Virus record (IMG/VR): IMGVR_UViG_3300011115_000874
Span: 1 to 64,000 of that record
DNA: 64,000 nucleotides
Source: a virus
Strand: one strand, 5' to 3'
Below, piece after piece: positions 16,504-53,950 of the stretch (positions are counted from its first letter, which is position 1; every line of letters begins with the position of its first letter). The notes beneath the pieces are model-generated. The model did not search any database and was not told the DNA's origin. It worked only from the letters and a program-made list of their open reading frames with translations. The translations under genes and the position numbers were made by a program.

Positions 16504-16929
16504 TTATTCTTCAGTTTTATCAACTAATGGACCTCCAACAACCCAAGCATCACAAGTTCGAGCAGCAGCACATTTAAATTTTAAAAATCTGCAATATCCT
16601 AATTTACCAGCATCAATTACATCAAATGGATCTTCTGATCCTCCATCGTTACCTATACCTTTAGCGATACAGTCTAGTGTTTTTGTTGTGATATCAAATG
16701 CAGCACAGTTACCACATAATGAAGTTTTAGCTTCTTCTATAGAATCAAGCTGCCACATATCTGCTTTAGCTTGCCAAAATTTTTCATTTGGTTCATTTGG
16801 ATTTAAAGGACCATATCCTTGATTTTTAATAGCTTTTTGTCTATTTTGAAGATTTAATTCTATGTTTTGTGTAGCAGCAGGACATTTATCTATATCTGCT
16901 TCATTTAAGATATCTACTAATTTTATCAT
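16504..16929 (-). CDS. Cys-rich protein with HiPIP-like cysteine spacing and MIKL leader
   Basis: Start reassigned to MIKLVDILNEA (ATGA overlap with upstream stop); CGNC..GYC..C..TCDAW. Confidence 0.6.
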   Translation of the reverse strand: MIKLVDILNEADIDKCPAATQNIELNLQNRQKAIKNQGYGPLNPNEPNEKFWQAKADMWQLDSIEEAKTSLCGNCAAFDITTKTLDCIAKGIGNDGGSEDPFDVIDAGKLGYCRFLKFKCAAARTCDAWVVGGPLVDKTEE

Positions 16930-17636
16930 TTTGTTTTCCCCCATTTTTTACCTTTACCTTTAGTTTTACATTGAGATGGTGTAGGACGACATGATGGGTA
17001 TTTAGATCGTTTTTCACCTTCTTTACGCCCACAAGGTTTACATTTACCATTTCTACATGTATTGCAATCTACCCACCCACCTTCTTTACCTGGTGTGCCT
17101 TTACGTTTAAACCATTTATGCAATGATTCGTCTTCAGTTAAAATATCTTGAAATTCTTGAGGTAATTTTTTAATGTTTACTAATTTAGCAGGAATTGATT
17201 TTAATTCAGCATCTATAGCTTTATTAGCTCTATGATTACCATCTATAATATATTTATAATCTCTATTATCATCTACAATAATAATAATAGGATATTTAAA
17301 ATCAGCAGCACTTAACCTATCTGATTCTATACCACCACTGTCTTTTTTAATAACTATTTTTTTAATTTTTTCAATAGGGGCTTGAATAATAGGATAATCT
17401 TTTATAATATTCAAAAGTTGTGTTAATGTTATTTTTTGTCCATTTTTTCCTGTCCAAGATGTTTTTTGCCAATCTTCTTTTAAATCTTTCCAGATTTTAC
17501 CTTGACGACATCTAACAATAGCACCTGATTTGTAAGCAGATGGTTTATCGTATTTACGATCAGCAATACGTTTACAGCGATCTGCTTTTTTCTTTTTCTC
17601 CTCAAGGAGTTGTTTTAATATCTCTGTAAGTTTCAT
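16926..17636 (-). CDS. Basic Cys-rich protein with an internal ParB/sulfiredoxin-like domain
   Basis: YPIIIIV..IIDGNHRANKA ParB-like motif between two basic Cys-containing segments. Confidence 0.65.
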   Translation of the reverse strand: MKLTEILKQLLEEKKKKADRCKRIADRKYDKPSAYKSGAIVRCRQGKIWKDLKEDWQKTSWTGKNGQKITLTQLLNIIKDYPIIQAPIEKIKKIVIKKDSGGIESDRLSAADFKYPIIIIVDDNRDYKYIIDGNHRANKAIDAELKSIPAKLVNIKKLPQEFQDILTEDESLHKWFKRKGTPGKEGGWVDCNTCRNGKCKPCGRKEGEKRSKYPSCRPTPSQCKTKGKGKKWGKTK

Positions 17637-17637
17637 A

Positions 17638-18282
17638 TCACCAGAATCCTGAAAATGTTGTTTTAAATCCTAATAACTTTGCATAACGAGGTAAACGACA
17701 TGACCAGTATGATGCCTTAGTACGATCTTTTTTATTAGCACAGTTATGTCTTTTGGCAAAGGCTTGACGCGCTTTAGGATTGTTAAGTTTAGCTCTTAGT
17801 CCACCACCTGCCATACCAAATGATACTTTTTTAATACGTTTAGTTTTAGGATCTTTAACATAAACATAGAATTTTTTAGAACCACCACGTTTTGGTTTAC
17901 CTAATGCGGGTTGTTTCTTTTCTTCTTCTAATTCGGCTTCTGTTAATATTTCAATTTCCATCATTGGTAAGTCTAAAGATACTATTTCACCTTCAAACAT
18001 CCCAAAACGACCTAAATCTGTATTTTCAAATAATTTTTTATCTTCAGCTAAAAGTTCAATAATACCTTGTTTCCATAGTATACGAGCTTCATGGATTAAT
18101 TCTATATGTGATTTAGAACCAGGACGGAATATATTCTCATGGATAGGTATTTTATTAGAAATATGATATCTCATTTCCTCAGATATAGGAGAATTATATT
18201 GTTTAGACTCATTTAATGTTGGGGCAACATTAGGTTGTTCTAGTAAAGCTGATTTTATTGCTTCTATTATTAGTTGCTTCAT
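17638..18282 (-). CDS. Conserved-type phage protein with basic C-terminal domain
   Basis: KKFYVYVKDP..KKVSFG..ARQAFAKRHNC..ASYWSC. Confidence 0.6.
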   Translation of the reverse strand: MKQLIIEAIKSALLEQPNVAPTLNESKQYNSPISEEMRYHISNKIPIHENIFRPGSKSHIELIHEARILWKQGIIELLAEDKKLFENTDLGRFGMFEGEIVSLDLPMMEIEILTEAELEEEKKQPALGKPKRGGSKKFYVYVKDPKTKRIKKVSFGMAGGGLRAKLNNPKARQAFAKRHNCANKKDRTKASYWSCRLPRYAKLLGFKTTFSGFW

Positions 18283-19250
18283 TATTTAAACAATTGGTTA
18301 AAATTCATTGATATCTCAGAAGATTTAACTGTAATTCCATTATTTAATAAATTTTCATCTGGGATTTGAGATATTATATCACTAGTAATTTTTGTATAGT
18401 CTCCTTTTCCAACATAATTAACATTTAAAATATATCCTACTTCTTGATTCATGTTAGGTTTTTTAATTAATTTTGTCCATAAAAGTTTACGTAGTAAAGC
18501 TACAGTTGCTTGTTCTGGGGTTGGGTTAGAATCTAATCCTAATGCTTTATATAAAGTATCTATCTTACTAAAAAAAGGTTTAGTTATATCTAATTTTCTT
18601 AAATCATTATTAGAATAAATTTCAAATATAATTTTAAAACCACTTAATAAATCTTGAGGTTTAAAATTACCTGTGTTAGCTTGAATAGCTTCTTCATTAA
18701 ATAATGATAATGTACCAAATACTTTATTTAAAAGACTAATTGTTTCTTTATCAGTTCCAAATTTACCTAAAGTAATAGTTTTAGTATCATATGCTTTAAC
18801 TTCAACTCCAATCCCACTAATAATTAAATCTGGGTTTTCTCCTCCTCTACCATCTATAACATTTATTGATTTTATATTATGTTGATAAGCCCAATAAGTA
18901 GCTATCTCTCCATTTCCTGATCCTGCTGTAGGTGTACCATCTGATTTTAATGGTTTGATTGGGTATAAAGCAGCCCAAATTTTTTCATCGTCTCCTTTTA
19001 AATTAAAAGACTCACCTACAGATAGAGGAGTTTTACATTTTGGGATATCATTAGTTTTTAAAGCTGATTGTATTAGGGCATCATATGGACTATTACTTTC
19101 AGTTAAAATATTTGTTATATTCACATTTTCTCCTAATTTTTCATTTATTAGAGACTCAAGTAATGAAATATCAGTAGGGTTACTCATATCTGGGTAACCC
19201 TTAGGGAATTTGTAAGAAACACTGTGTAGAAATTTATCGAATATATTCAT
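18282..19250 (-). CDS. Putative PD-(D/E)XK nuclease-fold protein with N-terminal targeting-like segment
   Basis: GNGE..PDLIISGIGVEVKAY; N-terminal SYKFPKGYPD..LLESLINE. Confidence 0.5.
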   Translation of the reverse strand: MNIFDKFLHSVSYKFPKGYPDMSNPTDISLLESLINEKLGENVNITNILTESNSPYDALIQSALKTNDIPKCKTPLSVGESFNLKGDDEKIWAALYPIKPLKSDGTPTAGSGNGEIATYWAYQHNIKSINVIDGRGGENPDLIISGIGVEVKAYDTKTITLGKFGTDKETISLLNKVFGTLSLFNEEAIQANTGNFKPQDLLSGFKIIFEIYSNNDLRKLDITKPFFSKIDTLYKALGLDSNPTPEQATVALLRKLLWTKLIKKPNMNQEVGYILNVNYVGKGDYTKITSDIISQIPDENLLNNGITVKSSEISMNFNQLFK

Positions 19251-19262
19251 ATTGATAAATAT

Positions 19263-19715
19263 TTAATGAACTAATAAATAAACTAAAGGCGCTATAATTA
19301 TTACTGCTACTCCACCAGTTACAAATGTTGATGTGACCCATTTATTCTTTTTATCAGTCATATCATCCAATTTAATTTTTGTGTTTTCATGAGTAATATA
19401 CTCATCATTATACTTTTTTTGAAAATCTTTTGATACATCTAATAATTTGTCATATTCACCATTTAAGTGATCATATGCTGATCTTTCTCTTTCAATTTGT
19501 AAATCAGCATCCATCGCATATCTTTCCCATTTTGCTTTTTCAAGCTTACATCCTTCAAACTGTTTAAATTTTACTAATAATTCAATTTCTTGTTTATAAG
19601 TAAAAAATATACCAGTATCACCGCTAAAAACAATACGTTTAGGGGTTAAGTGTTGACCACATGCTATCGCGCTGGTCAAGAGTAAAATTATGGATATTAG
19701 AAATGTCTTTAGCAT
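19263..19715 (-). CDS. Secreted or lipoprotein with C-terminal TM helix, spanin-like
   Basis: Start reassigned to MLKTFLISIILLLTSAIAC; coiled coil; C-terminal hydrophobic helix; overlaps upstream gene. Confidence 0.5.
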   Translation of the reverse strand: MLKTFLISIILLLTSAIACGQHLTPKRIVFSGDTGIFFTYKQEIELLVKFKQFEGCKLEKAKWERYAMDADLQIERERSAYDHLNGEYDKLLDVSKDFQKKYNDEYITHENTKIKLDDMTDKKNKWVTSTFVTGGVAVIIIAPLVYLLVH

Positions 19716-19971
19716 TTTTGATTTGGATATATTGGATTTCTGTTTTAACATTTGTTTGAGCACTATCATAATCTCGTTTTAGTTTAGTATAAGATATATT
19801 TAATGAATCTACAATATGACTTAAACTATCAATACGATTGTCTATAGGAGGCACTATTGGTCTTATAGGTTTATTATATGTTATTATAATATGAACTAAA
19901 AATGCTATAGTAAAAAACCAAGGTAGCATTATATACCAATTCTTTTTTATAAATTTAATTGATGTGTTCAT
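19639..19971 (-). CDS. N-terminal TM plus coiled-coil protein, i-spanin-like
   Basis: WYIMLPWFFTIAFLVHIII then IDSLSHIVDSL heptads. Confidence 0.5.
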   Translation of the reverse strand: MNTSIKFIKKNWYIMLPWFFTIAFLVHIIITYNKPIRPIVPPIDNRIDSLSHIVDSLNISYTKLKRDYDSAQTNVKTEIQYIQIKNAKDISNIHNFTLDQRDSMWSTLNP

Positions 19972-20528
19972 TATGCTGGTAGTGTTTCTTCAGGTGCTTC
20001 TTCTGTAGGTGGGGTTTCTTCTGTTGATGCTTCAGGTGTTGTTTCATCTGCTGGCATCTCTCCTCCCATTGGTACTTCTCCTACTGGTGCGTCTTTATCT
20101 GGTTCTGCTCCTCCACCATAACGTAATATACGAGCTATAGCTGCTGCAGCACGTTGTTCTTCATTTAAACTAGCTAAATAGAATTTTTTACCTTCAACTT
20201 GAGCAATCCAAGAACGTTCAGTGTATATCAAATAAAAATGTTGGTCATTAGCTAACATAATTTTAAATGTAGTAGGACGAGGAGCTACCCACCATATATC
20301 AGATATAAAATCTCCATATTGGTCTGTGAGTAAATCTATTATGACTTCTTTTAGTTTAGGAAATTTAGCTAATACAGGGAATAATTCCTCCTCAAAATTA
20401 ACATCATCTGGTGTTACACCGAATGTATCTTCTTGAGCTTCTTCTGAATTTTCTCCTGCTTTTCTAGCAGCATAGACACGTTTAGCTATAGCCTGTATTT
20501 TATCTACTAGTTCTTTTCTACTTGCCAT
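19971..20528 (-). CDS. Hypothetical protein with acidic Pro-rich tail
   Basis: 185 aa; WVAPRPTTFKIML core. Confidence 0.6.
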   Translation of the reverse strand: MASRKELVDKIQAIAKRVYAARKAGENSEEAQEDTFGVTPDDVNFEEELFPVLAKFPKLKEVIIDLLTDQYGDFISDIWWVAPRPTTFKIMLANDQHFYLIYTERSWIAQVEGKKFYLASLNEEQRAAAAIARILRYGGGAEPDKDAPVGEVPMGGEMPADETTPEASTEETPPTEEAPEETLPA

Positions 20529-20529
20529 T

Positions 20530-21198
20530 TTATTTATCTAAAGTGTATTCAGTTTTTTCATCTATTCCTGGCTTATTAGCTGCTTGGAAACCTAAGTATT
20601 GACTAACTGACGCTATGTAGTCAGCGGCTTTAGTAATTTTACTTTGTACCCAAGCTTCTAATTGAGTATCATCATCTAGCATTTGCATTAACTCTTGAGA
20701 GTTTTTAACTAAACGATATAATTCAGACTTAGCCATTTCACCTTCATAGTCAACTTCTTCTTTAAGATCTACCCCACGTCCTTTTAATATATCCGCTTTA
20801 GTCACTTTACCATCACCTGTTAAATCAGGGAATTCTTTACTTTTTTTCTCACTTACAGGAGGTGTAGATAATTTTTTCTTAATTATATCTTTTAATTTAG
20901 TCTCACTCATAGTTTGTACTTGTTTTTTAGCTATATTAATTGCACGACCCCATAGTACATCTTCAGCGTTACTATTGTGGTTGGTAATAGCGTTTATTAT
21001 TGCTCCATCATCAGCTTTCATCGCTGAATATATGTCTTTTGCTCTGTCTTTAACAGCATCTGATAATCCTTCATTAATAGGTTCAGAAGCATATAATGCT
21101 TTCATATAAGCCTTAGCTTTTTTAACAGATGAAGAACATCCTTTCTTCTTACCTGTCTCTTTATTATAAACACATTTGCCTCTTAATTCGTATGGCAT
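20530..21198 (-). CDS. Modular putative head protein with EF-hand-like loop
   Basis: PDLTGDGKVTKADIL; DYEGEMAKSEL..AWVQSKITKAADYI; modules separated by INE and LKEE. Confidence 0.6.
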   Translation of the reverse strand: MPYELRGKCVYNKETGKKKGCSSSVKKAKAYMKALYASEPINEGLSDAVKDRAKDIYSAMKADDGAIINAITNHNSNAEDVLWGRAINIAKKQVQTMSETKLKDIIKKKLSTPPVSEKKSKEFPDLTGDGKVTKADILKGRGVDLKEEVDYEGEMAKSELYRLVKNSQELMQMLDDDTQLEAWVQSKITKAADYIASVSQYLGFQAANKPGIDEKTEYTLDK

Positions 21199-21218
21199 AT
21201 CTATTTATTTTAAAGTTA

Positions 21219-21237
21219 AGGGGAGCAATGCTCCCCT
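21219..21237 (-). terminator. Hairpin terminator
   Basis: AGGGGAGC-AAT-GCTCCCCT downstream of the Hc1-like gene. Confidence 0.7.
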
Positions 21238-21257
21238 ATAACTAAATTTTACAATTC

Positions 21258-21431
21258 TTATTTCGTTTTGTCTTCAGCAGTAGAAGCTTTACGGTATTCC
21301 GCAATTACCTTCTTAATCTCACCAGCTGTTTTGCGAGCACGTCCATGTGCTGCTTTGGCGGGTTTTGAGTGTTCTGCTACTAATAACTCGAATAACTCTT
21401 GCATTCTTTCTAATAACTCTTGACTGTTCAT
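21258..21431 (-). CDS. Histone H1-like (Hc1-type) small basic protein, 57 aa, not in ORF track
   Basis: MNSQELLERMQELFELLVAEHSKPAKAAHGRARKTAGEIKKVIAEYRKASTAEDKTK; KAAxxRARK..EYRKAS pattern. Confidence 0.75.
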   Translation of the reverse strand: MNSQELLERMQELFELLVAEHSKPAKAAHGRARKTAGEIKKVIAEYRKASTAEDKTK

Positions 21432-21454
21432 AGATTTTATTTGTTTGGTTTATA

Positions 21455-21808
21455 TTATGCTTGATCCTTGGTGATTTGTGTTTTCAAAAAGAATAAAGCG
21501 GTGTTTCCGATTTGGCGTACTAATTTATCTTTATTTTCTCCGTCTGGTAGTTGTTTAGCAGCGTCTAATGCTGTTTGTAAACCTTGACCAACTTGTTTTT
21601 CAACAGAATCACCACCCATATCTGCTCCCATATCAGCAGTAGGTTCAACATCTATATTATCTACAGGTGCTTCTTCAGCAGGTGCTTCTTCAGCATCCAC
21701 TTCAAGATCTAAATCTAAAGGAGGTAATTCGTCTTTTTTCTTTTTTTCAAATAAAGCAACTTCCTCTTTAATGATCTGTTGTATTAGTGATTTTAATTTA
21801 GTATTCAT
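21455..21808 (-). CDS. Acidic putative head-internal/scaffold-like protein
   Basis: KLKSLIQQIIKEE start, acidic linker; late motif upstream. Confidence 0.55.
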   Translation of the reverse strand: MNTKLKSLIQQIIKEEVALFEKKKKDELPPLDLDLEVDAEEAPAEEAPVDNIDVEPTADMGADMGGDSVEKQVGQGLQTALDAAKQLPDGENKDKLVRQIGNTALFFLKTQITKDQA

Positions 21809-21828
21809 TGTATTTTATTATAAATATG

Positions 21829-22047
21829 TTATTTCTTCATGGTTTTACACTCATAACATTTCTTTTTAGATAATGCTTCTTTAGCGATATTTTTAATCTT
21901 ATCTTGAAGATCTTGAGAAAGTTCAGATTGTTTTTCGTCCCATTCTTTGTCCCACTGTTGTAAAAATTTCTTATCCCAGTCTTTAGTACCAGCGTGTGTG
22001 TTGGTTTTTTTATTTTCAACTTCAGCCAATTTATATTTAAAAGCCAT
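21829..22047 (-). CDS. Hypothetical protein
   Basis: 72 aa; TAATG coupling with upstream gene. Confidence 0.55.
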   Translation of the reverse strand: MAFKYKLAEVENKKTNTHAGTKDWDKKFLQQWDKEWDEKQSELSQDLQDKIKNIAKEALSKKKCYECKTMKK

Positions 22048-22409
22048 TAATGTAAGTTTTGTAATTTGTAGATAGTTGATTTGATTAAATCTGTGATACC
22101 ATCTAGTAGATTTTGTATGTTAGTATCTTCAATTGATTGGTATACTTCATAGACTGCTTTACATAATGCGTCTAAGTATGCTATTACTTGTTGAACGTTA
22201 TTATATTCCATCAAGTTAAAATTAGAATATCCTTTTACAATACCATATTTACCTTGATATGCTTCTACAATACTATCAATTAATGGTACTATACCATCAT
22301 AGTAAACATTTAAAGCCATATGTTCTGCAAATGACTGTGTTTGTAGATGAAAAATGTGAGCTTGGGTACGAGAGTGAAATAAATACGATATTAGTTTTGC
22401 AAAATCCAT
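22047..22409 (-). CDS. Ferritin/Dps-like four-helix protein (DUF5856-like)
   Basis: QAHIFHLQT.SFAEHMAL..YYD..DSIVEAYQG.YG. Confidence 0.75.
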   Translation of the reverse strand: MDFAKLISYLFHSRTQAHIFHLQTQSFAEHMALNVYYDGIVPLIDSIVEAYQGKYGIVKGYSNFNLMEYNNVQQVIAYLDALCKAVYEVYQSIEDTNIQNLLDGITDLIKSTIYKLQNLH

Positions 22410-22434
22410 GTTTAATTTTAATTATAAATATCGG

Positions 22435-23008: not shown

Positions 23009-23461
23009 TTATTTTGATGGAACCTTTTCTATATCACATTTTATTTTAGCACTATCTAAAATTACTTTTAAATCATTCTCCATTTGAACTAAAGTAAGTG
23101 TATTTTTAGATTGAGGAAATCTTAAAGAATTACCTTCAACTTCAAAGTTAAACTTATTAGGATTTTTAAGATCTTCTTTAAATTTATTTATTTCAGTAGA
23201 GGTTTTTATAGGGAATGCTTTTCCTCTTTCTTTTTCTAGTGCTTTTCGTTTTGCTGGGTTTTGAGGACCAAAGTATTTTTCTAGGTCTGATTTAGAAATT
23301 TTAGCAAATAATTTTTCGTAGTTTTTAGGATTTTTAATAGCCTTTTCTACATCTTCAACTGTTGCGTTAGTTGGAGTTAACAATAAATCATTTGTTTGTT
23401 TATTAATTGAAAATGTTGCTTCTTCTTCATTTTCCATTAGTCTTACTAAACTGTATTTCAT
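23009..23461 (-). CDS. Hypothetical protein
   Basis: 150 aa; MKYSLVRLMENEE start. Confidence 0.55.
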   Translation of the reverse strand: MKYSLVRLMENEEEATFSINKQTNDLLLTPTNATVEDVEKAIKNPKNYEKLFAKISKSDLEKYFGPQNPAKRKALEKERGKAFPIKTSTEINKFKEDLKNPNKFNFEVEGNSLRFPQSKNTLTLVQMENDLKVILDSAKIKCDIEKVPSK

Positions 23462-23958
23462 AGTCCTAGTTCTTTTAATTGTTTAATTGTATCCGCAGCT
23501 GATGTATGTAGTATTCCTATTCCACCTTTGTCTCTCCATTGTTGAATATTTTTTTCCATATCATCAATAAGTATTTTATTCTCCCCAGCATATTTTTGTT
23601 TAAACTTAGCTGGTGTCAAAATCATTTTAGCATCAGGTAAGTTATTTTTCTTCCATACTCGTTTACCTATTCTAGATGACTCTTCTTGTGAGGGTGCTGA
23701 TAATAATGTTGGGTTAAATGGTTTAATATAATTCCATAATGTTTGTCCATCAGGTAACCATTTTAATTTAATCCAAAATGAAGCTCCCATTTTATGTATT
23801 GGTTCCCAAAATTCTGCTCCTTCACCTGCAGCAGACATTGGTTTGCCTGTTGCTTCTTCATAACCTTTTTCAAAATCAACTAACACACCATCTAAATCAC
23901 AATAGATAGTATACTTGTTGTTTTCAACTTCTTCTAATAACTCTTTTAATTTAATCAT
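23458..23958 (-). CDS. HAD-family 5'(3')-deoxyribonucleotidase-like protein
   Basis: YCDLDGVLVDF motif I, LIDD motif IV; MIKLKELLEE leader. Confidence 0.85.
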   Translation of the reverse strand: MIKLKELLEEVENNKYTIYCDLDGVLVDFEKGYEEATGKPMSAAGEGAEFWEPIHKMGASFWIKLKWLPDGQTLWNYIKPFNPTLLSAPSQEESSRIGKRVWKKNNLPDAKMILTPAKFKQKYAGENKILIDDMEKNIQQWRDKGGIGILHTSAADTIKQLKELGL

Positions 23959-25240
23959 TTCCTTTTATTGAATTTTCCCAACCTCTAAATAATAAACCAT
24001 TACCATATTCATACGCTTCACGTTCTAATTCTTTTAAATAATCGTCTTCATTTATGTTATGTCCTTCTATATTTTGTAACTTTCCTTCAAGATTTTGTTT
24101 ATGATGTACCATTTCATGAGCAAAAGAGCGCAATATATCTTTAGGATGACGTTTTAGTGTGTATAACGTGATTGACTTGTCATTTGGGTTATAATACGCT
24201 GTTTTGCCGAAGAAATCATCAGCGTTCTTAGTATCATCATCAACAAAATTAACATCAGGTAATGGTTCAATATTAATATGACCAATCATATAGCTTGTTA
24301 ATGATACTAATTTTTCTATAAAATCAGTGTCATGTTCTAGACCTTTTTTACTAATGTTAGATATTACTATTTTATCTTTATCTTTATCAACTTTAAAACC
24401 TGATGGTGATAGATTTTTATAATAATTTTTATAATAATCTACTTTAGTAGGTTCTGATGATATGTTTATGTCTAACTGTTTATTTTGGAGTGGCTCAAAG
24501 AAATTATTTGTTTCTTTTTTAGGTGTATTATCATGTCCACATTTATGACACATAAATAAATCATTACCACCATCTTTTATTTTCCAAGTCCAACCACAAC
24601 CATCACAAACTATACTATCACCTTCTATAGATTCTTCAACCCAAGTTGTTATTTCTTCACTCTCAGACATTGGATTAAGTATATTAAATACTTCATCTTG
24701 TTCTTTAGGTTCTAATTCATCTGGTAGGTAATTAAATAATGATTCTTTATCTGTTAATACTTGTCTAGCTTTAGTACCACTAACATCATTAGCAGTAACA
24801 ATATTAATTGCTTCTAAATTATCACGAGTATCTGTTGCTTTAGAACGTTTTTCAAAATCTTCAAAATCTTGGTTGCTACCTTGTCTAGATCCTAAAAACC
24901 ATTTAATATCTTCAAATGGATGTTCTTTAGTGTATCTATAAATTGAAGATACAGGATTAGGTGATGCTTCAATTTTAACATTATCTGGTAAGTATTTTTT
25001 ATATATGTTCCAAATTGCTAATGATTGATCTTGAGTAATGTTTGATCTTCCACCTCCTGTTCCAACAAATATAATAAATTTGTTTGGATTATATTTTTCT
25101 ATAGCTTGTTTAACTACCTCAAAATGACCCTTAGTTGGTGGTTGAAACCCACCACCAAACAAACCTACAGTTTTTCCTTCACCTAAAGAATCAACCTCAG
25201 TTAAAAATGGTAATATAAGTGATTTAACTAATGAGTTCAT
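23951..25240 (-). CDS. HIGH-type nucleotidyltransferase fused to a Zn ribbon and HExxH metallopeptidase-like domain
   Basis: GGGFQPPTKGH, VSGTKAR; CDGC..CHKC; RSFAHEMVHHKQ..EREAY. Confidence 0.75.
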   Translation of the reverse strand: MNSLVKSLILPFLTEVDSLGEGKTVGLFGGGFQPPTKGHFEVVKQAIEKYNPNKFIIFVGTGGGRSNITQDQSLAIWNIYKKYLPDNVKIEASPNPVSSIYRYTKEHPFEDIKWFLGSRQGSNQDFEDFEKRSKATDTRDNLEAINIVTANDVSGTKARQVLTDKESLFNYLPDELEPKEQDEVFNILNPMSESEEITTWVEESIEGDSIVCDGCGWTWKIKDGGNDLFMCHKCGHDNTPKKETNNFFEPLQNKQLDINISSEPTKVDYYKNYYKNLSPSGFKVDKDKDKIVISNISKKGLEHDTDFIEKLVSLTSYMIGHINIEPLPDVNFVDDDTKNADDFFGKTAYYNPNDKSITLYTLKRHPKDILRSFAHEMVHHKQNLEGKLQNIEGHNINEDDYLKELEREAYEYGNGLLFRGWENSIKGND

Positions 25241-26034
25241 TTAATAAAATTATTAACAATAGTAGGTAATTGCTTACTATCTATAGGATTTAATTTAGAT
25301 TGAATATCCCCGTAAGTATTAGCTATTTTATCGATATTTTGATAAAGTTGTTGTTTTGTTTTTTCTCTTGACTTTTCTCTCTTTTCTTTCTCTTCAGGTG
25401 ATAAATCTGTGTCATCTTTTCTGAATGAAGATGTGAATTGACCTGTAGATAATAAGTTGTCGAAATATTCTTTTAAAGTACCATCTTGATATGCTTTTTC
25501 GAAATTAGCAATTTCTGTTGCTTCTTCTGGTCCTGATGGTGTATTTACTAAAACAAAATTGTCTCCAAATATATTTTTGTATTCATCTAATAAGTTGTAA
25601 ACATTACCCCAAGTACCTAAAACACCGGCTGCTGGTACTTTACGTTCGCGCTTATAGTTTCTTAAGAATGATACTATAGGATGAGCATAAACCATTATCA
25701 TCATTACATCATATCCACCTTCATTTAACATATCTAATGTTGGTTGAAGGGTAGATAAATTAGAAGCAGTAGTATCGTAAATTAAATTACGTTTAGCTTC
25801 TATAGCGCTTGGTAAATCTCTTTTTCTTATTTGAGTTGATGCGGCTGATAAATTACCAAACATAGGTGAGTCTTTATCTTCTACATATTTGTCAGCATTT
25901 AGATTTTCAAATCCACTTAATTGTGACTCAATTGTTTTTAATATTGTTGATTTACCTACTGACGCTCCTCCAGCCATTATGATGGCTTTTGGTTTATTTT
26001 GTACTTCTTTTAATAGATCCGTTAGTTTTATCAT
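25237..26034 (-). CDS. Zeta-toxin-like P-loop kinase
   Basis: Start reassigned to MIKLTDLLKE; AGGASVGKS, NAD, IYDTT, RNYKRERKVP. Confidence 0.7.
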   Translation of the reverse strand: MIKLTDLLKEVQNKPKAIIMAGGASVGKSTILKTIESQLSGFENLNADKYVEDKDSPMFGNLSAASTQIRKRDLPSAIEAKRNLIYDTTASNLSTLQPTLDMLNEGGYDVMMIMVYAHPIVSFLRNYKRERKVPAAGVLGTWGNVYNLLDEYKNIFGDNFVLVNTPSGPEEATEIANFEKAYQDGTLKEYFDNLLSTGQFTSSFRKDDTDLSPEEKEKREKSREKTKQQLYQNIDKIANTYGDIQSKLNPIDSKQLPTIVNNFIK

Positions 26035-38501: not shown

Positions 38502-38520
38502 TTGTTATAAATATAATTTA

Positions 38521-40384: not shown

Positions 40385-40801
40385 TTATAAAGTTATATCT
40401 ATAGAATTTTTGTTACCAGCAAATGAATAATCAATAATAATATTAATTGAGTTAACATCATAATTTGGATTAATAATTACACTATTTGTAGTGATTTGTG
40501 GAAAATTTGCTTTTAATCCTTCTATAATTTGTAATTTAAGATTATTTAAATTTACTTCAGTTGTATTTTGAAATATAAATCTTCTTAAATCACTACCATA
40601 ATTTGGATTAAGAACACGTTCACCTTTATTAGTTAACATATAATTAATAACATCTGATCTTAATTGTTCTGTAGTAGTGTATGTTGAACTAAATACAGCA
40701 TCTGAACCACTAATTATTGAACCAACAAATGGTAGACTTACCCCAATAGCTAGTTGATAATCAAGATCTAATGGATTATTATTTTCTATTCTATATGCCA
40801 T
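40385..40801 (-). CDS. Baseplate gp25-like protein
   Basis: MLTNKGERVLNPNYGSDL motif. Confidence 0.9.
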   Translation of the reverse strand: MAYRIENNNPLDLDYQLAIGVSLPFVGSIISGSDAVFSSTYTTTEQLRSDVINYMLTNKGERVLNPNYGSDLRRFIFQNTTEVNLNNLKLQIIEGLKANFPQITTNSVIINPNYDVNSINIIIDYSFAGNKNSIDITL

Positions 40802-41148
40802 TATTTACTATTCATTAGTCCCATTATTTGATCTAAACCTACTTCACCGCCTGGGAGACTTGATCCTTCACCCATTGTGTTAATTGGTGGAGGTGTGTAA
40901 GCAGGTTGAGCATGAGATGAGTTTGCAGTAATTGTAGCATCAAATTCACCTCCAATCATACTTCGTAAATTACGTTTAAGATCATGATTTACAGGAGAAG
41001 ATTGTTGATAGGTAGGAACGGGAGTATAAGTTTCCTGTATTACTGTTTTAGGTGATTTAACTGCTTCAAGAAGGATATCTTTAATTTCCTCTTGAATTGC
41101 TTCACGTACTGCTTCTTTAATTAATTTTTTTAGTCCGTCGATTTTCAT
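40801..41148 (-). CDS. Hypothetical protein
   Basis: LKKLIKEAVREAIQEEIKDILLEA start; late motif upstream. Confidence 0.6.
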   Translation of the reverse strand: MKIDGLKKLIKEAVREAIQEEIKDILLEAVKSPKTVIQETYTPVPTYQQSSPVNHDLKRNLRSMIGGEFDATITANSSHAQPAYTPPPINTMGEGSSLPGGEVGLDQIMGLMNSK

Positions 41149-41166
41149 ATGATTATAAATATTTGA

Positions 41167-47961: not shown

Positions 47962-47962
47962 A

Positions 47963-48269: not shown

Positions 48270-48683
48270 TTAAGAGGGATTTGCTATGTCTTGTATTTTT
48301 TTAAGAAGAGCACAATTCTCATATTCTTCTAAATCTTCAAAGTGGGAGAGTGCTGATGATAATGCTTTTAAAAATTGTTCATCTGAGTATAGTATAAGAC
48401 AATCACGATGCATTTGGTTAGTAGTATCTATTTTAGAAATATGATCCATAGCTCTAGCAAACACCATCATACCACCAGCTAACTTAATGTCATCTACATT
48501 TAATTTAGGATCAGATGATTCGAAGAACTCTACCATCTGTTTACTAAATACTTTATAATTTATAATTAACTTTTTAAACATTCCCATCCAAACAATAGGA
48601 TGATTAGACATATCTACTTGAGTAGTAGTCTCAACTTTCTCTTCAGGGGATTTAAATAAGTTAAAAATATCATCAATATTCAT
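48270..48683 (-). CDS. Hypothetical protein with UvrB/C-like C-terminal motif
   Basis: FEDLEEYENCALLKKI. Confidence 0.6.
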   Translation of the reverse strand: MNIDDIFNLFKSPEEKVETTTQVDMSNHPIVWMGMFKKLIINYKVFSKQMVEFFESSDPKLNVDDIKLAGGMMVFARAMDHISKIDTTNQMHRDCLILYSDEQFLKALSSALSHFEDLEEYENCALLKKIQDIANPS

Positions 48684-48710
48684 ATATATAAATATATGTT
48701 AAACAGGAGA

Positions 48711-48731
48711 ATAGCGGCTTTAGGCCGCTAT
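48711..48731 (-). terminator. Hairpin terminator
   Basis: ATAGCGGC-TTTAG-GCCGCTAT. Confidence 0.7.
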
Positions 48732-48739
48732 AATAAAAA

Positions 48740-49159
48740 AATTGTGGATGTGTTATTGACGGTTTAAATTTATCCTTTAATTAATTGTTTTTGCTCTTTT
48801 AATGTAGCAGACATTTTATCAATTCTTGAGTCTACATAAGACACAGTGTTATTAAATTTAATATCTAATTCACGCTGTAACTCAGTGACATGATGATCGG
48901 AATGGCGTCCTATTTCATCTAATCTACGATCCAAATCTTGACGTAGATGATTTAAATTTTCCCATCCATCACGTTCAATATTCTTACTTTGTTGTTCTTG
49001 TTCTTTAATTGCTTTTAACAATTTAGTAATCTTAACTACACCCCAAACGATTGCAGCTACAAATGCAGCTCCAACAATCGAGAGCATACCTAAAACGAAA
49101 TATATTGTTTCCATATTTATTTTCTCCTTATTATTATGTCAAAGAACACATCCACAATT
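48740..49159. repeat. 15-bp perfect inverted repeat enclosing the 48770-49114 gene
   Basis: AATTGTGGATGTGTT at 48740-48754 and AACACATCCACAATT at 49145-49159, extended by TTGAC/GTCAA. Confidence 0.85.
48770..49114 (-). CDS. N-terminal TM plus coiled-coil protein
   Basis: IYFVLGMLSIVGAAFVAAIVWGVV; SYVDSRIDK. Confidence 0.7.
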   Translation of the reverse strand: METIYFVLGMLSIVGAAFVAAIVWGVVKITKLLKAIKEQEQQSKNIERDGWENLNHLRQDLDRRLDEIGRHSDHHVTELQRELDIKFNNTVSYVDSRIDKMSATLKEQKQLIKG

Positions 49160-49160
49160 G

Positions 49161-49234
49161 TGCGCCCTCCTGGGATCGAACCAGGTACCTACTGATTATG
49201 AGTCAGTTGCTCTAACCTAATGAGCTAAGGGCGC
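49161..49234 (-). tRNA. tRNA-Ile2/Met (CAT)
   Basis: GCGCCCTTAGCTCA..ACTGA-CTCATAA-TCAGT..GGTTCGATCC..GGGCGCA cloverleaf; D arm resembles Ile2. Confidence 0.9.
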
Positions 49235-49240
49235 TATTTG

Positions 49241-49311
49241 AGGTCCTGAACGGAATCGAACCGCTGTATAAGCTTTTGCAGAGCTCCACCTAACCACTCG
49301 GCTACAGGACC
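49241..49311 (-). tRNA. tRNA-Cys (GCA)
   Basis: GGTCCTG..GAGCT-CTGCAAA-AGCTT..GGTTCGATTCC..CAGGACC, U discriminator. Confidence 0.9.
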
Positions 49312-49317
49312 TTTTTG

Positions 49318-49458
49318 TACTCAAGGCAGGAGTTGAACCTGCACGGGCTGCCATTATAATGACCACATCTTGTTCAGATGATTTTTTACCCACGTTGTTA
49401 TAACCATACGTTGCGTCTACCGTCGAACAGGGCCTCCTGATCCTTTCGCCACTTGAGT
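49318..49458 (-). ncRNA. 141-nt expanded tRNA-like RNA
   Basis: Acceptor ACTCAAG/CTTGAGT-A, Leu-type TGGCGAAA..GGTAGACGC with D-loop insert, T arm GCAGG-TTCAACT-CCTGC, branched variable region. Confidence 0.75.
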
Positions 49459-49511
49459 ATATGATGAATATAATATCTATATATTATAAAGCCAAACTCT
49501 TCTTGATAAAA

Positions 49512-49534
49512 AAAGCCGGGCTTAACCCGGCTTT
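49512..49534. terminator. Hairpin terminator, possibly bidirectional
   Basis: AAAGCCGGG-CTTAA-CCCGGCTTT with a T tract on the minus strand. Confidence 0.8.
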
Positions 49535-49557
49535 AAACGACTACTTATATTTTAGCG

Positions 49558-49845
49558 TTATAGTTGTTCGTCTGTATTAGTAGGTGGGGTATTGCCGTTA
49601 TTTGGCGTGTTATTCTTGGCTTGTTGTTTCATCTTAACAACGTTTTCTATAACAGTTAAACCTAAACCACCACCAGCAATTAACGCGATTGAATCGAACA
49701 TGAATTCGGGTGTGATGTGTTCTTCGTTCTTATAGGTAGCTATGTACGCTAGAGATATAACTACAGCTAATGCTAATAACGATGCGAAACGCTTACTTGA
49801 AGTATCTGAAGTGCCTGATAATAGGTCTTTAAGGAATTTTTTCAT
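49558..49845 (-). CDS. Putative holin
   Basis: SSKRF then two TM helices and a charged tail; late motif upstream. Confidence 0.6.
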   Translation of the reverse strand: MKKFLKDLLSGTSDTSSKRFASLLALAVVISLAYIATYKNEEHITPEFMFDSIALIAGGGLGLTVIENVVKMKQQAKNNTPNNGNTPPTNTDEQL

Positions 49846-49876
49846 AGTGTGTGTTTTATGATAAATATATAGTGAT

Positions 49877-50404
49877 TTACACTAGTAATGATTTTAACTT
49901 TATAGCTAGATCAGGTAGTTTTTTAATAGATAATATCTCTGACCAAGCATTAGGGATATAACTTTTTATAACGGTTACAACCTCAGGTATTTTAGACATA
50001 TCTAAACTATATAAAATTCCAGCTATTATTAATACTGTAGCTTTTAAAATATTAGCTAATTTATTTCTTTGACCATCATCTTTCACAAATGGTTTTAACA
50101 TTAACCTAATTGGAGAGTCTAATTTAGAATCTAATTTACTTGATAAATTAATTATCCAATCTACTTTTTGTCTCATTGGATCTCCACCTTTTTTAAGACT
50201 AATTCTAGACATTAAGGCTTTTACAACTCTAGCTAAGTTATTAACAATCCCTGGTATGGCTGGTGCTATCAAAGCTATATCTCCAATTGTAACTTCATTT
50301 TGAGGTACCTGTTTAATAGCATTTAATATAGCGTCATCTACACCTGATAAATCAATATCTTCTTGTGAGTCTAGTTCTTTTAATAAATCAACTAATTTAA
50401 TCAT
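49877..50404 (-). CDS. MIKL-leader protein with hydrophobic helices
   Basis: MIKLVDLLKE; IALIAPAIPGIV; ATVLIIAGILYS. Confidence 0.6.
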   Translation of the reverse strand: MIKLVDLLKELDSQEDIDLSGVDDAILNAIKQVPQNEVTIGDIALIAPAIPGIVNNLARVVKALMSRISLKKGGDPMRQKVDWIINLSSKLDSKLDSPIRLMLKPFVKDDGQRNKLANILKATVLIIAGILYSLDMSKIPEVVTVIKSYIPNAWSEILSIKKLPDLAIKLKSLLV

Positions 50405-50423
50405 AATAATAAATACAACAGAG

Positions 50424-50444
50424 AAAGGAGCTTTCGCTCCCTTC
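50424..50444 (-). terminator. Hairpin terminator
   Basis: Minus strand GGAGC-GAAA-GCTCC followed by TTTCTCT. Confidence 0.75.
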
Positions 50445-50465
50445 CCCTAATCAACCTTTAACTAA

Positions 50466-51269
50466 TTAGGCAGCAAACTCAGCTGCTAACTCATATAACT
50501 TAGCATTCAAATCTAAATCTTGTTTGAAGTTCTTAATCTTACGAGCCTTTCTAACCTTAGCTCCTGATTGGTATTCAAACATTCCTTGAGTAATTTTTTC
50601 TTGAATCACATTAAACACACTCCACAAATCAGTACCACGGTCTTCAGGTCTAGTAGCTGTAGTTAAGGCGTTATAATCAATTGCAATGTTTTGCGCTTGT
50701 TCTTCACCAAAACGTATTTGAACTGCTTTACGAGCAAACTCTAAAATTTGTTCTTGGGCCAGTTGCGTTTGTTTGAATTGATTCATTGACTCAACTGCTA
50801 ACGGTAACGCTTCTACCATTGTATTAATAACAGTTTGTAACTCTGTAAAATCATATCCGTAGTGACGAATCTTCATATTCTCAAACTCTTGAGTTGAAAT
50901 TACTAAACCATTCTCACAAATCATTCGAAACAAACCAGCAGTGAATGTAAACGCATTTTTACCATCATGACTATTAGTTAATAGAATTTGTGGAAAAACA
51001 TTATCACCATCTGCACCCTCAATGAACAAATCATTGTTACGAAACACTACTAAGTGTTTTTGAAATCCTTCACCTTTACGGGCGCGTACTTGTTTAACGT
51101 CTACTACACCCCATCCTAACTCTTCCATATCATCAATGATCTGTTTAGTTGAGATATGTGAATACTTCTGACTAGTACCTGGAGCACTTGTAGTTGTGAA
51201 AATTGAACTTGCTTTCTCTTTAATTTCAGAAGCAGTTAAAAACGTGTTGTTGTTTAAATCTAGTGGCAT
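50466..51269 (-). CDS. DUF932/DUF945-family protein
   Basis: LTNSHDGK..AGLFRMICENGLV..IRH; DLWSVFNVIQE. Confidence 0.85.
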   Translation of the reverse strand: MPLDLNNNTFLTASEIKEKASSIFTTTSAPGTSQKYSHISTKQIIDDMEELGWGVVDVKQVRARKGEGFQKHLVVFRNNDLFIEGADGDNVFPQILLTNSHDGKNAFTFTAGLFRMICENGLVISTQEFENMKIRHYGYDFTELQTVINTMVEALPLAVESMNQFKQTQLAQEQILEFARKAVQIRFGEEQAQNIAIDYNALTTATRPEDRGTDLWSVFNVIQEKITQGMFEYQSGAKVRKARKIKNFKQDLDLNAKLYELAAEFAA

Positions 51270-51291
51270 AACCTTTATTTATTTATTTTAT

Positions 51292-51588
51292 TTATAATTC
51301 GTTAATTAATGAACACATACGACTAATTGTGTTTCTGTATTTTTCTCTATAATCCATTCTCCATGGATCCCTATCTATATCCTGAGCTAAAAGAACTGCC
51401 TGGTCTGCATATATCTTTAACTTCTCAGATGTAGTGCCTTCAAATTCACCTTCTAAGGCGTCAATTGTAGGTACAATAAATATCTTTTGAACTGCCTTAC
51501 GGCCTCTTTTTTTAGGTTCAGCTGTGCTTACTTCTAATTTAACTTCTTGTTTTTTTGTCCCTGGTGGACGACCTCTTCTTTTTTCCAT
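51292..51588 (-). CDS. AT-hook DNA-binding protein
   Basis: KRRGRPP and KKRGRK motifs. Confidence 0.65.
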   Translation of the reverse strand: MEKRRGRPPGTKKQEVKLEVSTAEPKKRGRKAVQKIFIVPTIDALEGEFEGTTSEKLKIYADQAVLLAQDIDRDPWRMDYREKYRNTISRMCSLINEL

Positions 51589-51651
51589 AACCTTTATTTG
51601 TGTTTTTAATTATACCTAAATATAACATCCTTATCCTGGTGAGCCAAACTT

Positions 51652-51825
51652 TTAGTTGAATAGGCTAAGAATAGTAATAATGATAAAAAATATTGTAAAA
51701 TTAAAAACAAGACTACGTGAAACATTAATTACTTCTTCTTTAAATGTAGGCTTTACTTCAGCTTGTTGAGTGAGAATCATACGTGTAATCACTACTCCTA
51801 AAATCAAAATCATAATTGCGTTCAT
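51652..51825 (-). CDS. Small two-TM protein, 57 aa, not in ORF track
   Basis: MNAIMILILGVVITRMIL..LVFNFTIFFIIITILSLFN; own promoter at 51855-51886. Confidence 0.65.
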   Translation of the reverse strand: MNAIMILILGVVITRMILTQQAEVKPTFKEEVINVSRSLVFNFTIFFIIITILSLFN

Positions 51826-51938
51826 AGTCGTTGTTATTAATTATTATTATGAACTAAATATAACATCAACTCACCAGGAAGCCAAACACTCAACCGGAAA
51901 GGTCACAAGAAAATACTAGAACGTTGAAAATTAATGGA

Positions 51939-52898
51939 TTAGACGATTTCTAGGATAACATCGTCACCTACCTCACGAATCACTGCCAAAGCATCCTGAG
52001 TCGCTACTACTATAACTGGGTAGTTATCATCATCATTCAACCCAACCATTTGCATTAAATCAGCTCCTTCAATTACTTCCTCAATTGAACCAGCTTGATC
52101 TACAACTGCGTCTAACTCAGTTACTTTAATTTTTGTAGTTGATTCATAAATACCATAATCACCTTTAGATAATGATAACCCAGATAAAGCTTGTTTAATA
52201 TCAAGTAACACTTGAGGTGGATCAGTAGATAGTATTAAGTGGTCTACCCCTATACCTTCCATCAAACTAGAATTACTTATATCCTCAGGGGTGAATGGAA
52301 CAATAATTCCTCCTACTTCACCTCCAATAAAATTACCTTGTTTTAAACCTATAGGAGCTAACTTACTAATCCATAAACTCCAACTACCTGGGTATAAGAT
52401 GTTATCTGAGAAAATTGTTTTATATGCTTCTAATAACATAGTATACATCTTAATACCCAATCCTTTACCGCGGTACTTCGGGCTAACGTACGTTAAATGT
52501 ATCTCTGCACCAGGTAGGCGATATGGTTTAGTACGCCCAGAATTCGCATTGATGTATATTTTCTCCACCTCTACTTGTCCTATAACATAATCATCTAAAG
52601 TAGTGCCTTTAGTATTTACTAAATATAAAGTACCACGGTAAGTTGAAGGTACTATAAACTCAAAGTCACCATCAGCTGTGATAACACTTTTTTTAATCAT
52701 ACGAGGATTAAATGTAGCATCAGGCTTTAGATTAAAGTCCTCAGAGTTAAACTTACCTCTACTAACAGTAAAGAACTCATCTTCAGGTATTTGAAAGTCT
52801 TCTAAGAATGCAATCAATACTTGTTCTAAAGTAATGTTATCATCTAGATCGCCACCACGTAGGTCTAATTCTTTAAGTAAGTCGGTTAATTTAATCAT
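51939..52898 (-). CDS. GNAT acetyltransferase with MIKL leader
   Basis: YVSPKYRGKGLGIKMY acetyl-CoA motif A; MIKLTDLLKE. Confidence 0.75.
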   Translation of the reverse strand: MIKLTDLLKELDLRGGDLDDNITLEQVLIAFLEDFQIPEDEFFTVSRGKFNSEDFNLKPDATFNPRMIKKSVITADGDFEFIVPSTYRGTLYLVNTKGTTLDDYVIGQVEVEKIYINANSGRTKPYRLPGAEIHLTYVSPKYRGKGLGIKMYTMLLEAYKTIFSDNILYPGSWSLWISKLAPIGLKQGNFIGGEVGGIIVPFTPEDISNSSLMEGIGVDHLILSTDPPQVLLDIKQALSGLSLSKGDYGIYESTTKIKVTELDAVVDQAGSIEEVIEGADLMQMVGLNDDDNYPVIVVATQDALAVIREVGDDVILEIV

Positions 52899-52900
52899 AA

Positions 52901-53950
52901 TTAAAAATTCTTGCTGATTTCATCAGCTAATTGAGGTGATTTAGGAATAGTACTATGTAATGCATCAATTGGTATTACTTTTGATGACGCGTTTGTAGTT
53001 GCTTTTTTAGCGTTTTCTTCTTCTGTTTTAATTTCTTCAGGTGTTTTAGCACCTTCTTTTTTCTTAGAAGCAATTAATGATATTACTTCAACACCATTTA
53101 AGGGTCCTAATTTTTTACCTCCTGGTAATTCTCGTCCTAACCCTGCTTTCTTTTTAGTATCGTTAGTAGCGAACCATTTATAATCTATTGGATCTCCTTC
53201 TTTAAAAGTTTTACCTTTCACAGTGGGTGCTTTATTACTATATCGTTTTTCAAAATTTGTAGTATCAAATTTATCTTCTATTATCCAAGGATCTGATTGT
53301 TTAATATTAGATGCTTGTTTCTTGATTCCACTATCAGATGGAGGGAAATTACTACCAACGTATTCTATATATTTTCCTTCATTACTCTTTTTAAAACCAT
53401 CTAACTCATCATCAGTATAAAAAGTTTTAATCTTTTGTTCCTCAGTTGGTGAAAGATCACCTCCAACTCTATTCTTTACAAATACACTTAATGGTTGAGC
53501 AATTGCTACTCTAGGTTTATTACCTGCTACCATGTTATCAATAAAACTATCTGTACTATCAGCTATACCACTATCTATAAAGAATAATTTGTTATTAAAT
53601 TTCTTAGAGTCTAATGCTTTTAACTCTTTAGCTAAATGCCAAGCCATAGCACCTCCAATAGAAAAACCACCTACTCCAAATTTACTTATGTTAGGATTAC
53701 TTTCAATCTCATTAGCAATGTCTTTAGCATATTTTCTTACATCTAATTCATTAGCAAAATCAGCAGTATAAACAGAAAAATTTTTACCTAAATTATTTGC
53801 TAATGTAGTAAAATCACTTCCACCTTGACCTCCTCCAGCTCCAGAACCAGGTAAGAGTATGAGTGTGTTAGCTCCACCTTTAGATAAAGCGTAGAGTTTA
53901 GGTTTGTTTTCCTCTATTACTTCTTTTAATAAGTGGGTTAGTTTTATCAT
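52901..53950 (-). CDS. Alpha/beta hydrolase (thioesterase-like) with MIKL leader
   Basis: LLPGSG oxyanion region, GFSIGG nucleophile elbow, FFIDS, C-terminal His (ALHSTI). Confidence 0.75.
   Translation of the reverse strand: MIKLTHLLKEVIEENKPKLYALSKGGANTLILLPGSGAGGGQGGSDFTTLANNLGKNFSVYTADFANELDVRKYAKDIANEIESNPNISKFGVGGFSIGGAMAWHLAKELKALDSKKFNNKLFFIDSGIADSTDSFIDNMVAGNKPRVAIAQPLSVFVKNRVGGDLSPTEEQKIKTFYTDDELDGFKKSNEGKYIEYVGSNFPPSDSGIKKQASNIKQSDPWIIEDKFDTTNFEKRYSNKAPTVKGKTFKEGDPIDYKWFATNDTKKKAGLGRELPGGKKLGPLNGVEVISLIASKKKEGAKTPEEIKTEEENAKKATTNASSKVIPIDALHSTIPKSPQLADEISKNF

Follow-up and report, generated by a model that had tools for sequence, protein, structure and literature searches.

Unrelated proteins encoded in the first 64 kb (64,000 nucleotides; hereafter the window) of virus record IMGVR_UViG_3300011115_000874 begin with nearly the same ten residues, MIKLxDLLKE (hereafter the tag). 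The complete record comprises 160,798 bp with direct terminal repeats and a G+C content of 31.7%, and nearly all of its genes are oriented on the minus strand; genes are designated below by the position of their start codon. On balance, sequence comparisons favor the interpretation that the tag is a T4-type capsid-targeting propeptide, cut after its tenth residue (E10), of a large and mostly uncultured clade of aquatic T4-like phages. The tagged enzymes probably travel in the virus particle. A full-text literature search found no paper describing the MIKL leader.

All seven N-termini quoted in a first-pass annotation of the window are present on the minus strand and begin where that annotation had placed them. 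A position-weight matrix built from these N-termini was scored on all 1155 ATG codons with at least 40 codons downstream in the whole genome, and it sharply set apart seven starts (29–35 bits, with the next best start at 7.5 bits). These are exactly the starts that match the strict form MIKLxxLLxE, namely 16929, 23958, 26034, 50404, 52898, and 53950 within the window and 104173 outside it. Two of them, 16929 and 26034, are internal ATGs of slightly longer open reading frames (ORFs), and the internal starts are supported since homologs begin at the MIKL methionine. The remaining quoted N-terminus, at 17636, is a decayed copy of the leader in which I2 is missing and position 10 is Q, with LLEE after it; its orthologs in the complete genomes of two relatives, G002 and G003, have the canonical MIKLT(D/N)IL(K/L)E.

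The tag is conserved at the level of the protein and not of the DNA. Copies within the genome vary at synonymous sites, such that two of them have only about 22 of 30 bases in common, and the DNA upstream is unrelated between copies. In a set of 155 different tagged gene starts, drawn from many contigs, codon usage inside the leader was similar to that of gene bodies for each conserved amino acid, and the 40 bases upstream of these starts held no conserved sequence. This synonymous variation, together with the unrelated upstream DNA, indicates that the conserved entity is a peptide rather than a DNA element.

Homologs of the HAD nucleotidase encoded at 23958 were gathered by domain homology, so that the tag itself played no part in their selection. 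Among the 120 closest, most begin with MIKL(T/K)(D/E)(L/I)L(K/E/N)E, and five variable residues separate this leader from the first strand of the domain; some begin right at the domain, and others bear unrelated extensions. An alignment of 34 tagged members revealed that M1, I2, L4, L8, and E10 are invariant and that position 9 varies. In 906 database proteins of about 600 amino acids, the HAD domain is located C-terminal to a unit matching the protein encoded at 23951–25240. These fusions begin with the leader MIDLNTILNE, which follows the same template as the tag, and their junction to the HAD domain is PEIFEE, an I-x-E site. Since the domain occurs tagged, untagged, or fused behind a leader-bearing protein, the tag is a portable add-on. 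Conservation stops at residue 10, after which a variable linker of 4–6 residues leads to the first domain element. Among 57 unrelated cargo families, picked by a pattern that already demands those residues, invariance is limited to M1, I2, K3, and E10, and near-invariance to L4 and L8.

A degenerate DNA pattern for MIKLxDLLKE matched at least 120 loci in IMG/VR. The matches listed are all at ORF starts (122 of 122), on contigs of about 30% G+C, and a control pattern with the codons in reversed order matched four IMG/VR loci. The same pattern matched 23 times in 596 gigabases of prokaryote genomes. About five of these 23 matches are phage contigs binned into metagenome-assembled genomes (MAGs), and most of the others are short or internal and occur by chance; three MAG-binned phage contigs carry 6–10 homologs of genes of the phage studied here, including terminase and portal. 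The leader is widespread in IMG/VR and virus-specific.

When their first ten residues are removed, the tagged proteins at the loci listed form at least 62 BLAST clusters, i.e., unrelated cargo families. All four complete tag-bearing genomes examined (173–209 kb) encode a prohead protease, and each has 2–6 tagged genes. In genome G004, a tagged gene of 142 codons, whose family recurs in several other loci, is located between the protease and scaffold genes, and in G003 a tagged protein of 429 amino acids ends in the C-terminal motif shared by the clade's scaffold proteins. Homologs of T4-type head or packaging genes were identified in 44 of the 120 loci listed, a count that is not taken as enrichment since detection of viral contigs favors fragments with head genes; the protease was identified in 20 of the 120.

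Among cultured phages, the Microcystis cyanophage Mel-JY01, for which a literature search found no paper, encodes four tagged genes and a gp21-type protease. Three of its leaders read MIKLK(S/Q)LL.E and one reads MIKLMSLVTE, and a fifth match heads an ORF of merely 18 codons. Three paralogous tagged proteins of 216, 60, and 220 amino acids, annotated as hypothetical, are encoded at 60276–62718 of Mel-JY01. These paralogs display a motif, …RVWH(L/V)T…, that is reminiscent of ADP-ribosyltransferases of the H-Y-E class. Lineage-specific shared leaders in the Pelagibacter phage HTVC008M and the Methylophilales phage Melnitz amounted to weak pairs only, with no clear class.

The phage itself is aquatic and uncultured and, judged from its genes, a distant member of the T4 superfamily. 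Its large terminase (607–2178) matches T4-type terminases and is 61% identical to that of Flavobacterium phage vB_FspM_immuto (hereafter immuto), 51% identical to that of Mel-JY01, and approximately 30–36% identical to those of T4-like cyanophages. BLAST detected homologs of the gp20-type portal, gp21 protease, and gp23-type capsid protein. The Peptidase_S77/gp21 prohead protease (PF03420) is encoded at 156453–157061 (E = 7e-30) and its gene adjoins that of an acidic gp22-like scaffold; a gp6-like baseplate wedge protein is encoded within the window. Collectively, the T4-type terminase, protease, scaffold, capsid, portal, and baseplate genes place the phage within the superfamily, and the lack of a megablast match to its structural block among GenBank phages indicates that its cultured relatives are only distant. 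In tblastn searches, immuto matched just 88 of the 227 ORFs. No gp24 paralog was detectable in the clade by BLASTP.

In T4, gp24 and the internal proteins (IPs) carry N-terminal propeptides of 10–20 residues that are capsid targeting sequences (CTSs) and are removed by gp21 (PMC9026906; PMC5694885; PMC3012670). In the CTS of IPIII, residues 4 and 7 serve targeting and residues 8 and 10 serve processing (PMC9026906). The fixed positions of the tag, L4, L/I7, L8, and E10, are the positions that matter in the IPIII CTS. The N-termini in the T4 record are MAKINELLRE for gp24, MNEPQLLIE for gp21, and MKTYQEFIAE for both IPII and IPIII. The tag matches the gp24 propeptide at M1, K3, (I/L)4, (E/D)6, L7, L8, (R/K)9, and E10, i.e., five identities and three conservative matches over ten residues, a length too short for a significance test. 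The T4 leaders that gp21 cuts off include the CTSs of IPI, IPII, IPIII, and Alt, reportedly described by Mullaney and Black (1996), and the 10-residue propeptide of gp24.

The predicted cleavage sites of the clade point in the same direction. In 12 of 12 clade capsid proteins, L-[VLI]-x-E aligns with the site in T4 gp23 that is cut between FLTE and A, and this conservation suggests that the clade protease likely has a T4-like specificity. The N-terminus of that protease, M.K.(L/V)LIE, resembles that of T4 gp21 and is kept in four of five aligned sequences. When the clade protease was modeled in complex with residues 1–40 of the tagged HAD protein, the prediction scored 0.00, which counts neither way.

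Were the tag a T4-type CTS, its amphipathic N-terminal helix would dock the new protein onto the scaffolding core as the prohead assembles, and the gp21-type prohead protease would cut after Glu10 (L8-x-E10). The freed cargo would then remain in the head and exit with the DNA at infection. Because an address of ten residues would fit any body, genes could gain and lose the tag, and one loading signal might thereby have come to serve dozens of enzymes and small basic proteins with no relation to each other. The first-pass annotation had proposed a targeting leader of this type. Consistent with that proposal are the gp21-, gp22-, and gp23-type genes, the length of the tag, its fixed positions and L-x-E end, its portability and virus specificity, the gene order in G004, a cargo protein with an ART-PolyVal domain, and the position of 53950 and 104173 close behind a motif that also precedes tail, baseplate, and portal genes; the proposal falls short in that only some of the tagged genes follow the late motif, the terminase is among the proteins with looser leaders, and several cargo genes are located beside replication genes.

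Several observations weigh against the CTS interpretation. The kinase, nucleotidyltransferase, and HAD genes are directly downstream of genes for a primase and a PD-(D/E)XK nuclease, and their products, which look like enzymes of nucleotide metabolism, could equally act inside the cell during infection. Closest to 26034 is the motif ATATTTAG, which heads early genes elsewhere, and the hydrophobic stretches of the 50404 protein are unusual for T4 internal proteins. The likeness to the T4 gp24 and IP leaders spans only ten residues and is beyond statistical testing, and among cultured phages whose virion mass spectrometry is published, none carries the tag. Immuto, the closest relative in culture, has a single strict MIKL copy and relies on other leaders: its own shared leader, ending in FLVE, is on at least four proteins, and comparable looser classes (MKKSQLR.II…) are also present. 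Last, core binding, cleavage, residence in the virion, injection, and cargo function are all steps that we infer.

The main rival explanation is that the leader is a docking or localization peptide for a destination other than the prohead and that the proteins act, unpackaged, in the infected cell. Candidates would be a common phage or host partner such as a chaperone, a membrane, or a nucleotide-enzyme complex, or else the control of protein stability. We consider this explanation unlikely, although it deserves weight: several cargo proteins are nucleotide-handling enzymes encoded beside replication genes, not every tagged gene is behind a late-type motif, and the leader is modeled as a separate, low-confidence amphipathic helix on a confident domain, which would suit docking of any kind. 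It leaves unexplained, however, the invariant gp21-type L-x-E at residue 10, the protease–tag–scaffold order in G004, the scaffold C-terminal motif in G003, and the likeness to the T4 gp24 and gp21 propeptides, and no partner gene co-occurs consistently among the 120 loci listed. A Sec- or Tat-type signal peptide does not fit; K3, D6, K9, and E10 are charged, polar linkers follow, and there is no hydrophobic core of at least ten residues.

Shared N-terminal leaders on unrelated bodies are also a hallmark of systems in which a modifying enzyme recognizes the leader, such as those of ribosomally synthesized and post-translationally modified peptides or those linked to radical-SAM enzymes. Yet no radical-SAM or other modifying enzyme recurs near tagged genes at the 120 loci listed, where the recurrent neighbors are primase, nuclease, terminase, portal, protease, scaffold, and capsid genes. 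The sole radical-SAM match in the genome studied here, at 109.5 kb, is far from seven of the eight tagged genes, and the tagged genes are spread over at least five sites. A maturase leader was rejected on these gene neighborhoods, and we deem it highly improbable. An origin at the nucleic-acid level, with the peptide as by-product of a translation-start enhancer or of a cassette recombination joint, would be in keeping with the fact that ribosome-binding sites are not evident and that, in several tagged genes, 12 nt separate a promoter-like motif from the start, such that their mRNAs may be nearly leaderless. The synonymous codon proportions, the limited base identity between copies, and the upstream DNA described above all contradict it, as does the retention of D6, L8, and E10 despite codon changes. 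A DNA repeat or recombination joint was rejected on this synonymous variation, and we give an explanation at the nucleic-acid level very little chance.

A broader reading, to which we give somewhat less than an even chance, would be that one ten-residue address loads an exchangeable arsenal of many families into capsids, from which it is injected with the DNA, across a very large uncultured clade of aquatic T4-like phages. This arsenal would include ADP-ribosyltransferases, kinases, nucleotidyltransferase-zincin proteins, nucleotidases, and 2H-phosphoesterase-like and acetyltransferase-like proteins. If the tag does load heads, then proteins that start with it could be read as virion cargo from sequence. 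This would yield a cheap catalog of the proteins that abundant lake and ocean phages deliver ahead of gene expression, the likely members being counter-defense and host-takeover enzymes, mostly of families with no known function. If the broader reading is true as well, the tag alone would be a search key for hundreds of takeover or anti-defense effectors of the first minute. Head loading by the tag would also imply that the CTS principle of T4 is both old and general, that phages other than the T-evens exploit it far more heavily, and that a second natural tag exists for packaging foreign proteins into T4-type capsids. Should the tag serve otherwise, it would still rank, among short peptide signals of phage genomes, with the most widespread.

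The leader-bearing genes of the window are listed in Table 1. In a family alignment of tagged gene 1, M1, I2, K3, L4, L8, and E10 are invariant. Pfam and PHROG scans of the proteins encoded at 16929, 50404, and 104173, of two neighbors of 932 and 1035 amino acids, and of small proteins of the head module identified no families, and the AlphaFold2 model of the 16929 protein was poor, with a predicted local distance difference test score (pLDDT) of 41. GenBank relatives of 16504–16929 are annotated as ‘high potential iron-sulfur protein’. As a separate observation, the Cys-rich domain of this protein forms the C-terminal half of a 244-amino-acid protein of the Actinomycetia phage DSL-LC01 (63051–63785), which is flanked by a giant protein of about 3290 amino acids and by two genes annotated as ‘capsid maturation protease’, one of which has a weak match to Peptidase_S78. 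Tagged gene 2 has a partial homolog in immuto, and its body combines a basic, DUF5872-like region with a ParB-like DGNHR motif and a tail rich in Cys and Lys.

The assignment of tagged gene 3 is based on a match to phrog_2643 (E = 5e-26) and a weak Pfam Hydrolase match; in its AlphaFold2 model the domain core has a pLDDT above 90 and the leader is a separate helix (residues 4–13) at about 61. The adjacent 23951–25240 gene encodes an HxGH-type (NMNAT-like) nucleotidyltransferase domain, a CxxC…CxxC zinc ribbon, and a zincin-like domain with HExxH (HEMVHH), with weak Pfam matches to CTP_transf_like and Peptidase_M91. The FLTE that closes its N-terminal stretch is identical to the four residues that precede cleavage in T4 gp23. 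The kinase of tagged gene 4 matches Pfam Zeta_toxin (E = 3e-13, residues 11–132), and its homologs in HTVC008M and Melnitz have other short leaders that likewise end in L-x-E. The kinase, nucleotidyltransferase, and nucleotidase form a conserved trio that is syntenic in HTVC008M. Tagged gene 6 scores 21.9 bits against Pfam Acetyltransf_1 (cut-off, 20.7), and its orthologs at three loci (L029, L080, and L104) have an identical leader.

Among the 57 cluster representatives from other contigs, Pfam identified hydrolases, GNAT, DUF5872, and DUF6934 domains, together with a PARP-like domain below the cut-off and a weak match to 2H-phosphoesterase/Acb1-like proteins. A tagged, stand-alone ART-PolyVal ADP-ribosyltransferase is encoded in complete genome G002 (42 bits, with a cut-off of 31.2). 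Most tagged proteins have a single domain; only the 25240 protein and its HAD fusions have several.

Table 1. Genes of the window whose products begin with the tag, a decayed copy of it, or another short leader.
Coordinates	Strand	Length (aa)	Class	Leader	Other features
2203..2718	-	171	Looser leader; class uncertain	MKSSELKKYIEE	Just upstream of large terminase; late-type motif upstream
12817..13332	-	171	Looser leader	MEINRLRSIIRE	C-terminus with scaffold-tail-like FLKMQKLAGVITE
16504..16929	-	141	Tagged gene 1	MIKLVDILNE (16900-16929)	Cys-rich domain
16926..17636	-	236	Tagged gene 2 (decayed leader)	MKLTEILKQLLEE	Mature isoelectric point (pI) 9.8
21455..21808	-	117	Looser leader	…LKSLIQQIIKEE	Late-type motif upstream
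23458..23958	-	166	Tagged gene 3	MIKLKELLEE	5-residue linker, HAD 5'(3')-deoxyribonucleotidase-type domain
23951..25240	-	429	Neighbor with a different leader	15-residue N-terminus ending FLTE	
25237..26034	-	265	Tagged gene 4	MIKLTDLLKE	Zeta-toxin/AAA_33-type P-loop kinase
40801..41148	-	115	Looser leader	…LKKLIKE	In baseplate/tail block; late-type motif upstream
49877..50404	-	175	Tagged gene 5	MIKLVDLLKE	Hydrophobic stretches; pI 9.3
51939..52898	-	319	Tagged gene 6	MIKLTDLLKE	GNAT-like domain
52901..53950	-	349	Tagged gene 7	MIKLTHLLKE	Weak alpha/beta-hydrolase match

Two classes of promoter-like upstream motif were identified. The first, ATATTTAT(A/T) (ATATTTATAA-type), is located before portal, tail, and baseplate genes, and the second, (T)GTTATATTTAG followed by TATAAT, is located before small genes at 51–80 kb. 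Examples of promoter-like motifs in the window are those at 53955–53962, 41155–41162, 38507–38514, and 19255–19262. Many class-one motifs begin merely 12–14 nt before the ATG, which suggests that mRNA leaders are very short or absent for many of these genes. The first-pass annotation had placed several tagged genes directly behind a late motif. This applies to 53950 and 104173, in which ATATTTAT is 12 nt before the ATG (at 53955–53962 for the former), and to 50404, which has a one-mismatch version upstream. It does not apply to 52898, 23958, 17636, and 16929, which are internal to operons, although the last two are behind 19250, which has a class-one motif. The case of 26034 is mixed, with ATATTTAG at -12 and ATATTTAT at -54.

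Looser leaders of the form LKxLIxE had also been noted at 2718, 13332, 21808, and 41148. These exist, but the class is not specific to cargo. Of 210 proteins, 13 have the motif [LIM][KRQ]x[LIVM][LIVM]xE within their first 20 residues, compared with 6 of 2067 internal windows, and its N-terminal enrichment is therefore real. Since the set includes both the large terminase and the protease, the four looser-leader proteins are not assigned to the cargo on the motif alone.

Other repeated sequences were observed in the genome. A second address-like motif, (F)LKMQKLAG(L/V)ITE, is encoded at 9992–12790 and 12817–13332 in the window and at 99795–100307, 154344–155405, and 155607–156449 elsewhere in the genome. 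It is N-terminal in the 932-amino-acid protein (12790), in a 170-amino-acid protein, and in the product of a 280-codon gene right after the protease, and it is C-terminal in the 13332 protein. The scaffold has a similar C-terminal tail, …RMQRLAGLRK, that is conserved in G001–G004, and the motif may mimic a shell-binding function of that tail. A 162-amino-acid protein of the head module (157991–158479) has …ATG.GASFTSG..GENY… in common with the capsid protein (152639–154312), in which this stretch is at the predicted mature N-terminus, directly after an L-K-E-E site. In the early region, minus-strand ORFs that start at 56723, 58737, 59611, 61208, and 61502 apparently begin with MLYSGIIKN or MLYS.IIKK, preceded by similar G-rich DNA; these starts probably reflect a repeated DNA element of early-gene cassettes rather than a protein leader. 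An ORF of 202 codons behind a late-type motif (7931–8539) has a GIY-YIG-type start (…YIGKG…) and probably encodes a homing endonuclease.

The closest known counterpart of the tag is the CTS or gp24 propeptide of T4. Both leaders are N-terminal, span about ten residues, and precede unrelated proteins; positions 4 and 7 are hydrophobic, positions 8–10 read [LI]-x-E, and the genomes encode a protease of the gp21 type, a gp22-like scaffold, and a capsid protein of the gp23 type. The tag differs in its consensus, in its occurrence in a distant and mostly uncultured aquatic clade, and in a far more varied cargo (at least 62 families) with many enzymes besides small basic proteins. As at the polymorphic internal-protein loci of the T-even phages, one conserved address precedes changing bodies, and the presence of the tag varies among related phages. 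The tagged genes are, however, scattered over the genome rather than confined to one locus, and the set comprises kinase, nucleotidase, acetyltransferase-like, hydrolase-like, and ADP-ribosyltransferase domains. Alt of T4 is likewise an ADP-ribosyltransferase, and it is packaged and injected.

The polyvalent proteins of phages and conjugative elements have ADP-ribosyltransferase, zincin, and ParB-type domains that are predicted to travel with DNA (Iyer, Burroughs, Anand, de Souza, and Aravind, 2017; PMC5512222). The cargo described here overlaps with these in its ART-PolyVal domain, its HExxH zincin-like domain (25240), and its ParB-like motif (17636), and both sets are proposed to be delivered with the DNA. 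Whereas polyvalent proteins combine 2–15 effector-type domains per chain, the tagged proteins mostly consist of single domains that would each have their own clip-off address. Head proteins of phages phiKZ, 201phi2-1, and SPN3US have long propeptides, mostly of more than 100 residues, that are cut after (S/A)-x-E by gp21-related proteases and are thought to target inner-head and ejection proteins (PMC5694885). Cleavage at Glu by a related protease, predicted here, would be common to both systems, but the tag is one short leader shared by many proteins whereas the phiKZ-type propeptides are long and individual. The principle of such loading is already known from T4, and the diverse internal proteins of the T-even phages have only the CTS in common (PMC3012670; PMC9026906). 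The new elements are the consensus itself, how large the clade is, how broad and how rich in enzymes the cargo is, and its overlap with the domains of polyvalent proteins.

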